Source of the DNA: Escherichia phage PhiNW-B1
Sequence record: PQ476010.1
Length of the DNA: 40,478 bases
Reading direction: 5' to 3' (one strand)
The first letter of the stretch is position 1, and every line of letters starts with the position of its first letter. Shown in pieces: positions 811-8,938 of the stretch. A program made the position numbers and the translations under genes. A model generated the notes under the pieces. It saw only the letters and a list, made by a program, of their open reading frames with translations, did no database searches and was not told where the DNA came from.

Positions 811-1196
811 TGCTAACCGACTTTACTTACTCAGATGGGAAGTTGTTCAGGAAGGGACGCGAAGTCGGCTCAATGGACAACCACGGGTATCTAAGGACTA
901 CGGTCAACTACCGTAAGTATCTCGTACACCGTCTAATCTACAAGCTACACAACCCTGAGTTCGACCTTGAGTCAGACCTCGTTATTGACCACATCAACCG
1001 CGACCGAACAGACAACAGGATTGAAAACCTTCGGGCTGTGACTAAGGCTGAAAACAACAGGAACAGGGACCTACCGAGAGGCGTGTCTTATTGCAAACAG
1101 ACCGGGAAGTGGAAGGCTATCCAACCTCGCTGGCTCGGTCGATTTGATACTGAACAGGAGGCCATAGATGCAGTTAACGCCGCAAGAGCGGAATGA
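810..1196 (+). CDS. HNH homing endonuclease with C-terminal AP2-like DNA-binding region
   Basis: motif [28 protein letters not shown] (HNH); C-terminal GVSY...WKA...LGRF..EQEAIDA; RBS AAGGAG; ATG overlaps 18.5 stop (ATAATG). Confidence 0.8.
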
Positions 1197-2931
1197 GGCA
1201 GTAACCAATCGGATGAAAGAAGACTTCGTGTTCTTCTTATTTGTCCTCTGGAAAGCACTTAGCCTACCAGTACCAACCAGATGCCAGATAGATATGGCCC
1301 GTAAGCTCTCCGCTGGGGACAACAGGCGCTTCATCCTACAGGCGTTCCGTGGTATAGGGAAGTCCTTCATTACGTGTGCCTTCGTGGTCTGGAAGCTATG
1401 GAATAACCCAGACTTGAAGTTCATGATTGTGTCGGCCTCAAAGGAACGAGCCGATGCTAACTCCATCTTCATCAAGCGAATCATCGACCTCATGCCTCAG
1501 CTTCGGGAACTCAAACCTAAGCAGGGGCAGCGAGATGCGGTTATCAGCTTCGACGTTGGACCAGCCAAGCCAGACCACTCACCTTCGGTTAAGTCCGTTG
1601 GTATCACTGGTCAGTTGACTGGTAGCCGTGCTGACATCCTGATTGCCGATGACGTGGAGGTTCCGAACAACTCAGCGACTCAGGCTGCCCGAGACCGTCT
1701 GTCAGAGCTTGTGAAAGAGTTCGACGCTATCCTGAAGCCGGGAGGTACAATCATCTATCTGGGTACTCCTCAGAACGAGATGACCTTGTATCGTGAGCTG
1801 GAAGGCCGTGGGTACACCACTACTATCTGGCCTGCTCGTTATCCACGCGACAGGAAGGACTGGCAGTCTTACGGCGACCGTCTGACTCCTATGCTTCAGG
1901 CAGAGCTTGAAGAGGACCCTGAGTCCTTCTACTGGCGTCCTACCGATGAAGTACGATTCGATGATACGGACCTGAAGGAACGTGAGCTGTCCTATGGTAA
2001 AGCTGGCTTCGCTCTACAGTTCATGCTTAACCCTAACCTAAGTGATGCCGAGAAGTACCCTCTGAAGCTCCGTGACCTTATCGTAGCAGACTTGGACCCA
2101 GCGTCTAGCCCAATGGTCTACCAATGGCTTCCTAACCCTCAGAACAAGCGTGAGGACGTTCCTAACGTTGGACTCATGGGTGACTCATACCACACGTATC
2201 AGACTGTAGGTTCTGCCTTCAGTTCGTACACCCAGAAGATTCTGGTCATTGACCCTAGTGGTCGTGGTAAGGATGAAACTGGCTATGCGGTACTGTATCA
2301 GCTCAACGGCTACATCTTCGCTATGGAAGTTGGTGGTATGCGTGGTGGTTATGAAGACTCTACGCTGGAAGCACTAGCTAAGATTGGTCGTAAGTGGAAG
2401 GTCAACGAATACGTCATTGAGGGTAACTTCGGCGATGGTATGTACCTTGAGCTATTCAAGCCTGTAGCGGCCCGTATCCATCCTGCTGCTGTAACTGAAG
2501 TGAAGAGTAAGGGTCAGAAAGAACTCCGCATCTGTGACGTTCTGGAGCCTATCATGGGGTCTCACCGACTTATCGTTAACGCTGCTGCTATCGTCCAAGA
2601 CTACCAGTCAGCCTCTGATAAGGATGGTGTGCGTAACCCTATCTACTCTCTCTTCTACCAGATGACCCGTATCTCTCGTGAACGTGGAGCCTTGGCACAC
2701 GATGACCGACTTGATGCGCTGGCTATCGGTGTACAGTTCTTCGTTGAGTCGATGGCTAAGGATGCCAACAAAGGCGAACGTGAAGTCACTGAGGAGTGGC
2801 TGGAGGAACAGATGGAGAACCCACGGAAAGGCTTCGAGTCCATCCACACTGAGTTCTGGGACAATGGGGTCCGGGTGACTCACGATACGGACGACGAGCT
2901 GGGACTAGGGTCATACGTTACGTTCCACTAG
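1168..2931 (+). CDS. 19: DNA maturase B / large terminase subunit (T7 gp19-like)
   Basis: 587 aa; strong similarity by recall to T7 gp19 ([49 protein letters not shown]); RBS AGGAGG 6 nt upstream. Confidence 0.95.
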
Positions 2932-4010: not shown

Positions 4011-4121
4011 TACTAGACACAAAGCTATAGACTTAAGGTCAAAGACATGTTAGTCAAAGACTATATCCTATTACACCATGGGGCCGACGATAGCTTAATC
4101 AATATTATTTCAAATTACCTA

Positions 4122-4150
4122 TTGACTATAGGTCTAGACTATGGCTTAAT
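4122..4150 (+). promoter_or_regulatory. candidate host sigma70 early promoter (TTGACT-17-CTTAAT)
   Basis: -35 TTGACT 4122-4127 (identical to T7 A1 -35), weak -10; inference. Confidence 0.3.
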
Positions 4151-4262
4151 AGCTTCCGTCAACACGACACGGCAACAACCGGATAGTGAAGACGCCTGGT
4201 CATCCCGGTTAAGTAGACAGCCTGATAAGTCATACGAACAACAGGCAGATGACAGAAAGTAG

Positions 4263-4473: not shown

Positions 4474-4728
4474 ATGGACACTATGAAACACTTAAGCACA
4501 ATCACTAATCGCAATGAAGTATTCGTGAACACTAAAGGTTATGCGTGGATTCAGCTTAAAGAGATGAGAGGAGCGCGTCACCGTGTGGTAGTTCGCAAGG
4601 TATCAAGCAAGCCGTTCAGCAACTACAGCGTAGATACTATGCGTATAGACAACGAGACTTACCTGATAGACTCGCAGATAACCGTGCGTCCTACAGCGGG
4701 CATCTCAGCTCCTTATTTCGCTAACTGA
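4474..4728 (+). CDS. hypothetical early protein (84 aa)
   Basis: ORF in early region upstream of ocr; no homolog recalled. Confidence 0.55.
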   Translation: MDTMKHLSTITNRNEVFVNTKGYAWIQLKEMRGARHRVVVRKVSSKPFSNYSVDTMRIDNETYLIDSQITVRPTAGISAPYFAN

Positions 4729-4783: not shown

Positions 4784-4811
4784 ACATAATTAACTTTGAG
4801 AGGATATAACT

Positions 4812-5315
4812 ATGGAACGTAATGCTAACGCATACTATGAGCTGCTGGCTGCAACCGTTGAGGCATTTATCGAGCGTATTCAGTACGACCACCTGACTCA
4901 AGATGATGACTACAGCGATGCGCTGCATGAGGTCGTAGACGGTCAGGTTCCACACTATTACCACGAGATTTTTACGGTGATGGCTGCTGATGGTATAGAC
5001 CACGAGTTCGAAGACTCTGGGCTGATGCCTGAAACCAAGGACGTAACGCGTATACTACAAGCTCGCATCTATGAGGCGCTTTATAACGATGTGTCTAATA
5101 GCTTGGATGTAGTCTGGTTTGAGGCTGAAGAGGCAGACGAAGAGGATGAATATTGGGTAGTTGACGCTAAAACAGGCGCAATAATTGTGCAAGCTGTAGC
5201 TCTTGAGGTCGCTACTGCATGTGCCAAGGTCAACTATGCAATAGGTCGCCACCTGAAGGTGGAAGACATCAATGATAACGTAGTGTTCGACCCTGCGGCT
5301 GAGGACTGCGAGTGA
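4812..5315 (+). CDS. ocr: Ocr-like anti-restriction DNA mimic (T7 gp0.3 homolog) with about 54-aa C-terminal extension
   Basis: N-terminal ~113 aa align by recall to T7 Ocr ([35 protein letters not shown]); 167 aa versus 117 in T7. Confidence 0.85.
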
Positions 5316-5471: not shown

Positions 5472-5496
5472 GAGGTCACTACTGATAGGTGGCCTC
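5472..5496 (+). promoter_or_regulatory. hairpin GAGGTCAC / GTGGCCTC, member of the AGGTCA/TGGCCT hairpin family
   Basis: arms 5472-5479 and 5489-5496 pair with one G-U wobble. Confidence 0.35.
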
Positions 5497-5530
5497 AAAG
5501 ATTACCACTTACATTGATAGGAGAATTACT

Positions 5531-5698
5531 ATGAAATTTACAATCATCGCACTTTACGTAACCATTATTCTATCTTGGCTTACTGCGGTGCTCACTGATG
5601 GTAACGCATTACGACTGGGCTGGCTGGCAGTGGACATTATATTCTCTCCGGTAGGTGTCGTGCGCGGTATCTTGATGTGGATTGGACTGGCAGGATAA
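5531..5698 (+). CDS. small hydrophobic early protein (56 aa, predicted membrane)
   Basis: ATG 5531 preceded by AGGAGA 6 nt upstream; track ORF 5489 begins at a GTG without RBS. Confidence 0.5.
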   Translation: MKFTIIALYVTIILSWLTAVLTDGNALRLGWLAVDIIFSPVGVVRGILMWIGLAG

Positions 5699-5701
5699 AC
5701 T

Positions 5702-5899
5702 ATGAGTCTTGCACTATTGATAGCCATAGGCTATGGACTTATCGCCTACGTGCTGGTGAGAGACATCAACAAAGCGCGTAAAGTCTACAAATTCAACTAT
5801 GTACGTCTGGGCCGCTGGACTGTACGTCAACCTAACGGACGATTCATGCGCAACTTAGCGAACGTCTGGGATATAGCAACTATTGGGAGCAAACTGTAA
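5702..5899 (+). CDS. small early protein with N-terminal transmembrane helix (65 aa)
   Basis: MSLALLIAIGYGLIAYVLV hydrophobic N-terminus; tightly packed after previous gene. Confidence 0.5.
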   Translation: MSLALLIAIGYGLIAYVLVRDINKARKVYKFNYVRLGRWTVRQPNGRFMRNLANVWDIATIGSKL

Positions 5900-6159
5900 T
5901 GAAAACCGTATACATTAACAAACCATCTAGCCATAGCCGTGTAGAGCAAATAGAGCGTGACATGTTCTTACATCGCCGCATGAGGGCTGAGGGCCATAAG
6001 TACGAACTGATGAGTCTGGCGTTTGGTGGACGACCGATCACTGACGATGGTAAACTTTTAGTCTCAGGCTGGAAGGCGATAGACCAACGGTCAACCATCA
6101 AGCACACGACTCACGGTGACTTCAGCCATCTCCACGCTAACCCACTGATATGCAAGTGA
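5899..6159 (+). CDS. hypothetical early protein (86 aa)
   Basis: ATG overlaps previous stop (TAATG); no homolog recalled. Confidence 0.55.
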   Translation: MKTVYINKPSSHSRVEQIERDMFLHRRMRAEGHKYELMSLAFGGRPITDDGKLLVSGWKAIDQRSTIKHTTHGDFSHLHANPLICK

Positions 6160-6256: not shown

Positions 6257-8938
6257 ATGAGCGTCATCTCTATTGACAAACACGACTTCTCTGATGTGTC
6301 GAACGCCATTGAGCCGTTTAACCTGCTGGCTGACCACTACGGGCAAGACCTTGCAGTCAAACAGCTTCAGCTTGAGCATGAGGCCTACACTGAAGGTGAG
6401 CGACGTTTCATCAAGAACCTTGAGCGTCAGACTGAGCGCGGGGAACTGGCAGACAATCAGGTCGCCAAGCCTTTGATGCAGACTCTGGTTCCTAAGATTG
6501 CGCAAGCCGTCAAGGAGTGGCACGAAGGTCCAGACGGGAAGCTGTCAACCTCTCGTCCTAGCGTAGCGTTCACCATGTTGAGCACTGAAGAGAAGGCCGT
6601 CAAGGACCGCTCTCTTCGCATCTCCTGCGAGTCTGCTGCGGTTATCATACTGAAGGTCATCCTCTCCAAGCTGGTCAAGCCTGAAGGGATACCGATTACA
6701 CCGATGGCCTCCGCGATAGGTCGCACACTTGAGGACGAAATCCGCTTCGGTCGCATCCGTGACAAGGAGAAGGAGCACTTCAAGAAGGCGATAGCTGAGA
6801 ACTTGAACAAGCGAGCTGGGGCATCCTACAAGAAAGCCTACATGCAAGCGGTCGAGGCCTCCATGTTGGAGCAAGGACAACTGGAAGATGCGTGGGGAAC
6901 TTGGAGTCCGACCGAGGCTGTCCACGTTGGCATCAAGATGCTTGAGATTGTCATCCAGTCAACACAACTGGTCGAGCTTAAGCGGTACGGTGCTGGCAAT
7001 GCAGCGGCTGACGTAGAGATGGTCCACCTGTCAGACTTCTGGGTCAAGAAGATGGCACAACGCGGATTTAGCCTTGCGGGTATCGCCCCAGTCTACCAAC
7101 CTTGCGTCGTTCCACCTAAGCCGTGGACCGGTGTCGTAGGCGGTGGGTACTGGGCCAAAGGTCGCAGACCATTACCACTGATTCGCTTAGGGTCTAAGTC
7201 TGCGGTGGCACGTTACGAAGACGTGTATATGCCTGAAGTCTATGACGCTGTTAACATCATCCAGAATACACCTTGGAAAGTGAACAAGAAGGTTCTGGAC
7301 GTGGTGAACATGGTCGAGAAGTTGAACAACACGCCTATTGATGACATCCCTCAGATGGAGCCACTGAAGCCTGAAGAATATGCGGGTGAGACTGAAGAGG
7401 AACTCAAGGCGTGGAAGAAAGCGGCTGCTGGTATCTATCGCCGCGAGAAGGCCAGACAGTCACGCAGATTGTCACTGAGCTTTATCGTGAACCAAGCTAA
7501 CAAGTTCTCTCAGTTCAAGGCCATCTGGTTCCCGTACAACATGGACTGGCGCGGTAGAGTCTACGCTGTGCCGATGTTCAACCCTCAGGGTAACGACATG
7601 CAGAAGGGTCTCCTGACTCTGGCAGTCGGTAAGCCTATTGGTGCTGATGGTTTCAGATGGCTGAAGGTCCACGGTGCAAACTGTGCGGGTATTGATAAAG
7701 TAACCTTCGAGGAGCGCATCAAGTGGGTGGAAGATAACCACGACAACATCATGGCTACCGCTAAGGCACCGATGGACAGCATTGAGTGGTGGGGTAAGTT
7801 AGACTCTCCGTTCTGCTTCCTAGCGTTCTGCTTCGAGTATGCTGGCGTAATGCATCACGGATTGTCTTACTCCTGCTCGCTGCCGATAGCATTCGATGGG
7901 TCCTGCTCTGGGATTCAGCACTTTAGCGCGATGCTTCGTGATCACATCGGTGGACATGCAGTAAACCTGACGCCTTCCGGTAAGGTCCAAGACATCTACC
8001 GCATCGTGTCTGACCGCATTGAGGAAGAGCTTAAAGTCCTGCTGGTTAACGGCACGGACAACGAGATGGTAACTCACGAGGACAAGAAAACTGGTGAGAT
8101 TACCGAGCGTCTCAAGCTGGGGACACGAGAGCTGGCCCGTCAGTGGCTGACCTACGGTATGTCACGAAAGGTCACTAAGCGTTCGGTCATGACTCTGGCC
8201 TACGGGTCGAAAGAGTACGGCTTCGCAGACCAAGTTTACGAGGACATCGTGATGCCAGCGATTGACTCAGGGTCTGGCGCTATGTTCACTGAACCAAGCC
8301 AAGCATCTCGCTTCATGGCTAAGATGATTTGGGAAGCTGTGAGTGTGACCGTAGTTGCTGCGGTTGACGCGATGAAATGGCTTCAGGGTGCTGCCAAGCT
8401 GCTGGCGGCTGAAGTGAAGGACAAGAAGACGGGTGAAATCCTGAAGCCTTGCCTTCCGGTACACTGGGTCACACCTGATGGGTTCCCGGTCTGGCAGGAA
8501 TACCGCAAGAAGGATACCACTCGTCTGAATCTGATGTTCTTAGGGTCATTCAACCTTCAGCCTACCGTCAACAAAGGCACGAAGAAAGAGCTGGATAAAC
8601 ACAAGCAGGAGTCAGGCATTAGCCCGAACTTCGTCCACTCACAAGATGGTAGCCACCTGCGCAAGACTGTAGTCCACACGCATCGCAAGTATGGCGTGAT
8701 GTCATTCGCAGTGATTCATGATAGCTTCGGGACCATCCCGGCTGACGCTGAATATCTGTTCCGTGGTGTCCGTGAGACGATGGTCGAGACCTACCGCGAC
8801 AACGATGTGCTGCTTGACTTCTACGAGCAGTTTGAATACCAGCTTCACGAGAGCCAGCGCAATAAGTTGCCAGAGCTTCCGAAGAAAGGTAAACTGAATA
8901 TCGAAGACATCTTGTCTTCAGACTTTGCATTCGCTTAA
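6257..8938 (+). CDS. 1: single-subunit DNA-dependent RNA polymerase (T7 gp1 homolog)
   Basis: 893 aa; extensive identity by recall to T7 RNAP (AIWFPYNMDWRGRVYA, NPQGNDM.KGLLTLA, DGSCSGIQHFSAMLRD, HDSFGTIPADA, C-terminal FAFA). Confidence 0.98.
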   Translation: MSVISIDKHDFSDVSNAIEPFNLLADHYGQDLAVKQLQLEHEAYTEGERRFIKNLERQTERGELADNQVAKPLMQTLVPKIAQAVKEWHEGPDGKLSTSRPSVAFTMLSTEEKAVKDRSLRISCESAAVIILKVILSKLVKPEGIPITPMASAIGRTLEDEIRFGRIRDKEKEHFKKAIAENLNKRAGASYKKAYMQAVEASMLEQGQLEDAWGTWSPTEAVHVGIKMLEIVIQSTQLVELKRYGAGNAAADVEMVHLSDFWVKKMAQRGFSLAGIAPVYQPCVVPPKPWTGVVGGGYWAKGRRPLPLIRLGSKSAVARYEDVYMPEVYDAVNIIQNTPWKVNKKVLDVVNMVEKLNNTPIDDIPQMEPLKPEEYAGETEEELKAWKKAAAGIYRREKARQSRRLSLSFIVNQANKFSQFKAIWFPYNMDWRGRVYAVPMFNPQGNDMQKGLLTLAVGKPIGADGFRWLKVHGANCAGIDKVTFEERIKWVEDNHDNIMATAKAPMDSIEWWGKLDSPFCFLAFCFEYAGVMHHGLSYSCSLPIAFDGSCSGIQHFSAMLRDHIGGHAVNLTPSGKVQDIYRIVSDRIEEELKVLLVNGTDNEMVTHEDKKTGEITERLKLGTRELARQWLTYGMSRKVTKRSVMTLAYGSKEYGFADQVYEDIVMPAIDSGSGAMFTEPSQASRFMAKMIWEAVSVTVVAAVDAMKWLQGAAKLLAAEVKDKKTGEILKPCLPVHWVTPDGFPVWQEYRKKDTTRLNLMFLGSFNLQPTVNKGTKKELDKHKQESGISPNFVHSQDGSHLRKTVVHTHRKYGVMSFAVIHDSFGTIPADAEYLFRGVRETMVETYRDNDVLLDFYEQFEYQLHESQRNKLPELPKKGKLNIEDILSSDFAFA

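Follow-up and report, generated by a model that had tools for sequence, protein, structure and literature searches.

[quoted passage not shown] The protein has 117 aa, the last of which form a disordered acidic tail. EcoKI is still blocked, both in vivo and in vitro, by T7 Ocr that has lost its C-terminal 17 residues (PMC3439906), which makes the tail a permissive site able to accept an insertion. PARIS, Ronin and EcoR22I are Ocr-sensing systems (PMC11464382; bioRxiv 10.1101/2023.04.06.535777).

A longer form of Ocr has been present in databases since the K1F "ocr-like" deposit and is folded into PHROG 2568. Our literature search, with the K1F genome paper outside its scope, found no description or test of this K1F/Kayfunavirus long form or of its C-terminal domain or extension. 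Here we describe a long form from Escherichia phage PhiNW-B1, a natural Ocr variant with a predicted folded, selected orphan domain at the place where T7 Ocr tolerates deletion. K1F gp0.3 (YP_338090, 169 aa) has the same architecture and is 83% identical to it overall and 68% in the tail; other Kayfunavirus "Ocr-like" proteins also share the architecture, and the PhiNW-B1 protein is a member of this group with no structural difference. K1F-like phages are used and engineered against K1/uropathogenic E. coli, which makes their counter-defence repertoire practically relevant.

The Ocr gene of PhiNW-B1 and its surroundings

The analysed stretch of 40,478 nt (sequence record PQ476010.1; hereafter the window) is an essentially complete Kayfunavirus genome (K1F-like, Autographiviridae) in permuted orientation. 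The first ORF, whose size and position suggest the terminase large subunit, is followed by the early region and then by the phage RNA polymerase gene (Table 1). Ocr occupies the class I early-gene position upstream of the polymerase and, like T7 Ocr, is an early gene transcribed ahead of it. The five small early ORFs flanking Ocr each match a PHROG of unassigned function, with zero matches to Pfam. A gp0.7-type kinase is absent from the interval between Ocr and the RNA polymerase gene in the window, in which the Przondovirus and Teseptimavirus relatives differ.

Table 1. Coordinates of Ocr, its parts and neighbouring genes in the window
Feature	Position	Strand	Basis or remark
587-aa ORF, putative terminase large subunit	1168..2931		First ORF in the window
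Five small early ORFs around Ocr	4047-4262, 4474-4728, 5489-5698, 5702-5899, 5899-6159	+	
Shine-Dalgarno-like GAGAGGA	4798..4804	+	7 nt 5' of Ocr ATG; read from sequence
Ocr ORF	4812..5315	+	167 codons, ATG start, TGA stop
Ocr DNA-mimic core, residues 1-103, up to the conserved VVWFE motif	4812..5120	+	Pfam and T7 Ocr homology
Poly-acidic linker, residues 104-113, first half of the ancestral acidic tail as aligned	5121..5150	+	Alignment, AF2
GAGGA direct repeat, copy upstream of the module	5142..5146	+	Sequence and alignment
Predicted inserted beta-beta-alpha-beta-beta domain, residues 114-161 (YWVVDAKTG...NVVFDP), 48 residues	5151..5294	+	AF2, dN/dS, homologs
Terminal AAEDCE and TGA stop, second half of the ancestral acidic tail as aligned	5295..5315	+	Codons common to short alleles
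GAGGA direct repeat, copy downstream of the module	5301..5305	+	Sequence and alignment
Next early ORF, 50 aa	5312..5464	+	GTG start overlapping Ocr stop (GTGATGG); PHROG 5058, function not assigned
893-aa phage RNA polymerase	6257..8938		

The overlap of the GTG start of the 50-aa ORF with the Ocr stop suggests that its translation is coupled to that of Ocr. In CHX131, this downstream ORF carries the label "NinH protein". Annotation of the Ocr gene itself is uneven: the window protein has a 100% identical counterpart in Escherichia phage MirsaeidiM_Esher2 that is named "hypothetical protein", its K1F orthologue is annotated as gene 0.3, and several records (e.g. ZH4, CY1, IME177, LM33_P1, vB_Kp1 and SHAK7854) mislabel the gene as "protein kinase", "Phage protein kinase" or "similar to N4-like RNA polymerase".

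Judged from the sequence, membership in the Ocr family is secure, because sequence match, acidic composition and genomic position agree. Pfam PF08684 ("DNA mimic ocr") covers residues 8-94 with 104.9 bits (E=3.6e-30; curated cut-off, 25 bits), and phmmer against the PDB aligns query residues 11-111 with residues 11-115 of T7 Ocr (1s7z_A, E=1.2e-25). PHROG 2568 ("ocr-like anti-restriction") matches at E=4e-54, with a profile reaching residue 142. Residues 47-90 are mostly identical to T7 Ocr in the phmmer alignment, including F54, the position at which an F54V substitution in T7 Ocr was reported to evade PARIS. The core (residues 1-103) possesses a net charge of -17 and a pI of 4.16, and the full 167-aa protein a net charge of -30 and a pI of 4.08; a pI of ~4 is common to the window protein and its T7 homolog. 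The core is 77-90% identical to the short Ocr alleles (108-119 aa) of Kayfunavirus, Przondovirus and others, and its pairwise dN/dS among six long alleles is 0.06-0.25. We infer that it works like T7 Ocr against type I R-M and BREX.

These matches bear out the preliminary description of the ORF as an Ocr homolog with an extra segment of ~54 aa: residues 114-167 (YWVVD...AAEDCE, nt 5151-5312), 54 in number, reach past all of T7 Ocr. That description had also aligned residues 1-113 with the whole of T7 Ocr. The homology holds, but the confident alignment stops near residue 94-103. The acidic stretch beyond this point, previously equated with the T7 acidic tail, is low-complexity and is aligned by phmmer with low posterior probability and gaps; it corresponds better to the first half of the tail of short alleles.

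The AF2 monomer model places core helices at residues 2-26, 35-59, 62-66 and 75-95, with a pLDDT of only 51-60 over residues 51-80. A Foldseek search of the PDB with the full monomer model, low-confidence core included, missed 1s7z. The Ocr fold is helical and forms a bent, DNA-like homodimer; this obligate dimerisation is the likely reason for the low confidence and merged helices of the core and for the missed 1s7z match. Monomer models of DNA mimics need caution when used in fold searches.

Long and short forms of the acidic tail

Comparison of allele ends among Ocr ORFs catalogued at 47 loci reveals a short and a long form with the same core. The short alleles (108-119 aa), found in Kayfunavirus, Przondovirus and other contigs, end with VVW[FWY]E, an acidic run and (E)EDC(E/DD) before the stop codon, in the C-terminal pattern ...EAEE(SDE)EDCE, and are without residues 114-161. 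In the long alleles, the acidic stretch is followed by YWVVD...VVFDP and then by AA(A)E(E)DCE and the stop codon. Ahead of the tail, a conserved S(S/L)DVVWFE motif of the window protein takes the place of the distal part of T7 Ocr helix D (~residues 95-106). In the DNA alignment, long and short alleles have identical terminal codons, GAGGACTGCGAGTGA, and in Kayfunavirus they also overlap the following gene in the same way (GTGATGG).

What separates the long from the short form is an in-frame indel (159-171 nt) with GAGGA or GAAGAGGA repeats at its borders, the flanking repeat in the long allele L004 being the 8-nt GAAGAGGA. Were the 159 nt between the two GAGGA copies of the window excised, the 114-aa product would match the natural short allele of L015, VVWFEDEEADEEDCE, almost perfectly. 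For the T7 early region, deletion between repeats is a well-documented event. As read from these alignments, the domain is located within the ancestral acidic tail and not after it, as had been proposed, and EDCE remains C-terminal, the terminal (E)EDCE being common to short alleles.

Since the domain splits the tail, the acidic stretch ahead of it is one half of a split tail that now forms a linker. Eight of the ten linker residues are acidic; AF2 predicts coil over residues 96-113, with pLDDT <50 at residues 107-109, and linker length among homologs ranges from 0 to ~25 residues. The closing (E)EDCE or EDCDD is a conserved Cys-containing C-terminal motif of Kayfunavirus- and Przondovirus-like Ocr that T7 Ocr is without; it is encoded at 5295-5312 in the window, and the short alleles are found in L001, L011-L044 and neighbouring contigs of the 47-locus catalogue.

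In a tblastn search of 50,697 phage genomes with residues 114-167 (E<=1), the tail is recovered from 71 phage records, with 66-100% identity and always in frame behind an Ocr core. Overall, the domain is carried by ~71-80 GenBank phage genomes, or roughly 80 of 573 Ocr-bearing phage records. A protein search returned 501 matches; among the 120 listed, almost all are 162-179 aa long and carry the tail, and at least ~118 distinct 90%-identity clusters in this length range carry it, the extension being conserved in over 100 metagenomic protein clusters. Pairwise comparison of six long alleles yields a tail dN/dS of 0.11-0.57 at dS 0.24-0.75. The ratio is below 1, so the tail is translated and constrained; by this measure, the inserted domain is under purifying selection. 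The tail evolves somewhat faster than the core, with the biggest contrast between K1F-type and window-type alleles.

The extension could in principle be created by a sequencing or assembly frameshift, a possibility the preliminary description had named, or by read-through into the neighbouring ORF. Deletion fusions do happen at this locus. The Ocr of Escherichia phage vB_EcoP_IMEP24 (L005, 462-1022) is a 186-aa chimera composed of the Ocr core, the first half of the domain and the C-terminal 49 aa of another gene, which is a separate early ORF in SH3, SFPH2, Dev2 and other Kayfunaviruses; it looks like a natural deletion fusion across several early genes. In the metagenomic protein P0092 (167 aa), the domain breaks off behind GRHLK, where the C-terminal part of the next early ORF takes over (...VYEGHKRIHDSLHAEDK), and this next-ORF part is tagged Pfam PF26807 in the source database. 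However, the tail is in frame in 71 independently sequenced phages and in hundreds of metagenomic sequences, dN/dS is below 1, the fold is confidently predicted and the tblastn, profile and pattern searches found no standalone copy as a fusion source, so that the chance of an artefact is negligible.

Long and short alleles are mixed inside the Kayfunavirus clade when the 5' 300 nt of the gene are placed on a neighbour-joining tree, which is without bootstrap support and could also be shaped by recombination; K1F (long), for instance, is the neighbour of L013 (short), and L004 (long) that of L017 (short). This interspersion argues that the module was repeatedly lost or gained, or exchanged. The Ocr of the Teseptimaviruses Ebrios and IME15 carries a divergent version of the domain, ~35% identical, so the module occurs in more than one genus. 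On the genomes searched, the domain is lineage-restricted, occurring in Kayfunavirus and a few Teseptimaviruses, and is always fused to Ocr. Because domain-less natural alleles exist in otherwise near-identical phages, the domain is dispensable for viability. It is thus a real but uncharacterised variant of the Ocr tail, kept or lost among relatives.

Predicted fold and possible relatives of the inserted domain

AF2 modelling of the tail alone gives a pLDDT of 92.4 and a pTM of 0.75, with all five models above 91. The predicted domain is composed of four strands (tail residues 2-5, 11-13, 35-38 and 44-46) and one helix (18-30), and the same elements appear in the full-length model with pLDDT 83-88, following the coil or low-confidence residues 96-113. 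Residues 114-161 are accordingly predicted to form an independently folding, compact and well-folded domain, which disagrees with the disorder that had been considered earlier as a possibility. In an alignment of 57 sequences, restricted to Kayfunavirus-type relatives of at least ~70% identity, W115, L131, A134, Y142, G145, V150, V157, F159 and P161 are invariant or nearly so; we take them to be mostly buried core positions, as a reading of the model and not a computed result. C137 of the inserted domain is also nearly invariant.

These features bear on whether the extension is a disordered or neutral, functionless passenger en route to loss. Short alleles are common and interspersed with long ones, and T7 Ocr inhibits EcoKI without its C-terminus, both of which would suit a passenger. 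Against it stand the pLDDT of 92, the dN/dS of 0.11-0.57 measured over dS 0.24-0.75, the retention of the domain in two genera, including the ~35%-identical version in Ebrios and IME15, and the W115...P161 set that is invariant or nearly so across the 57 Kayfunavirus-type sequences. A passenger is therefore improbable.

The domain carries a net charge of -2, compared with -17 for the core, and 6 acidic residues among its 48, compared with 22 of 103, in line with the earlier impression of a less acidic segment. A domain that lengthens or re-shapes the acidic rod, giving the mimic a longer footprint (type III R-M, BREX or RNA polymerase), would be compatible with the charge of the whole protein (net -30, pI 4.08) and with the conserved, acidic VEDINDN hairpin and the acidic flanks. 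However, at net -2 the folded part is unlike an additional DNA mimic, and a low-confidence linker of 0 to ~25 residues provides no fixed register with the mimic surface. The domain thus probably does not extend the DNA mimic, and we give this reading little credence.

Searches with the tail alone found nothing significant in Pfam and PHROGs or among PDB sequences, consistent with the preliminary view of a non-Ocr segment without assigned origin. A six-frame HMM search of the window found no second copy, and the tblastn search of the 50,697 phage genomes (E<=1) detected Ocr-fused copies only, with no standalone or otherwise-fused tail. A HMMER profile run against 1.84 billion representative proteins gave three weak, repeat-driven matches, none of them credible; this set did not return the long-Ocr family either, which is presumably represented there by a tail-less protein. 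Pattern scans of 185,579 prokaryotic genomes and IMG/VR added no new tail homolog. Thus none of tblastn, profile search or pattern scans found the tail encoded by an ORF of its own in another phage, which had been suggested as a search target. A botulinum neurotoxin C motif match to the tail (E=0.027) was judged to be chance.

At the structural level, Foldseek of the domain against BFVD gives best matches at E >= 0.09, all to uncharacterised small phage proteins. T4 Dmd antitoxin (5HY3_B) and AcrIF9 (7CHR) are small phage inhibitors whose compact alpha/beta fold may be similar; structural matches overall are weak. The ClpS and L7-L12 C-terminal domains share a beta-alpha2-beta-alpha-beta fold, of which the tail, with a single helix in AF2, is short by two of three helices; neither matching topology nor profile similarity was found, and hhalign against an E. 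coli ClpS sequence gives a probability of 0.3%.

The tail might instead be a circularly permuted PepSY-like domain of the peptidase-inhibitor type. The PepSY fold consists of one helix followed by four strands, an arrangement from which that of the tail could be derived by permutation. The segment VVDAETGAIIEQE matches the last 15 positions of the PF03413 profile with 18.8 bits (E=0.002), which is below the curated gathering score, and the hint is limited to the VDAxTGxII hairpin. The circular-permutation test failed, and we regard this relationship as very improbable.

One further likeness comes from P0121, a 2313-aa metagenomic protein. Its repeated module WRVLSIDxTTGEV...CKxLY...ARSMTVEDxNKAxGYDP, located near residues 1190-1290, 1500-1600, 1740-1830 and 2100-2200, echoes the tail in the same order. 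HMMER scores the pair at E=4e-6 library-wide, and hhalign gives a probability of only 37%, restricted to the C-terminal half. The likeness may reflect distant homology or convergence. No Pfam family covers the module, and the N-terminus of P0121 looks pilin-like by eye.

Candidate roles of the inserted domain

The best explanation, which we consider somewhat probable, is a bipartite Ocr in which the folded domain inserted into the tail has a conditionally useful, accessory protein-binding role. The protein runs from the Ocr core (residues 1-103) through a flexible acidic linker (104-113) into the predicted folded domain (114-161) and the terminal EDCE, and at either outer end of an Ocr dimer one copy of the domain would be tethered, two in all. 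Because the C-terminus is permissive in T7 Ocr, classical anti-restriction probably does not require the domain; it would act as an accessory protein-binding module that is useful under some conditions. A small, folded and mildly acidic domain on a variable tether, present or absent in near-identical phages, is what would be expected of such a module.

As for its partner, the domain could bind a second host (defence) factor or alter the recognition of Ocr by the abortive systems PARIS, Ronin and EcoR22I. The preliminary description had suggested that the extra segment might shift the target range (RM, BREX) or help the protein avoid Ocr-sensing defences. Our best guess, a tentative one, is engagement of a second host factor or an altered view of the mimic by the Ocr-sensing systems. 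An anti-defence or anti-sensor module would neutralise a second immunity protein or keep AriA (PARIS), Ronin or EcoR22I from recognising the mimic, and its repeat-mediated gain and loss would follow the host defence repertoire; this is conceivable, if doubtful.

The main rival to protein binding in host defence is a role in stability or assembly, by which the domain would alter the oligomeric state, solubility, proteolytic stability or toxicity of Ocr. T7 Ocr is known to bind RNA polymerase, and a lowered binding of this enzyme, with no binding of a defence protein, would be an example. The negligible hhalign probability against ClpS and the two helices by which the tail falls short of that fold count against such a role, and we consider it unlikely.

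Joining of two activities in one early protein has a precedent. T7 gp0.7, composed of a kinase and a host-shutoff C-terminal domain, is a class I early protein that joins two separable host-takeover functions. It is unrelated to the window Ocr in sequence and fold and serves as a precedent only.

The matched natural alleles with and without the domain provide a ready construct pair for the trade-off between Ocr as inhibitor and Ocr as trigger. If the domain has no phenotype, the finding shrinks to a catalogued domain polymorphism. Comparison of early regions found no gene that is present or absent in step with the long or short allele. In Ebrios (L050, 1-57), a gene labelled "SAM-dependent methyltransferase" lies upstream of the long-form Ocr, and gp0.2 of Cronobacter phage Dev2, at the orthologous position, carries the same RefSeq label.
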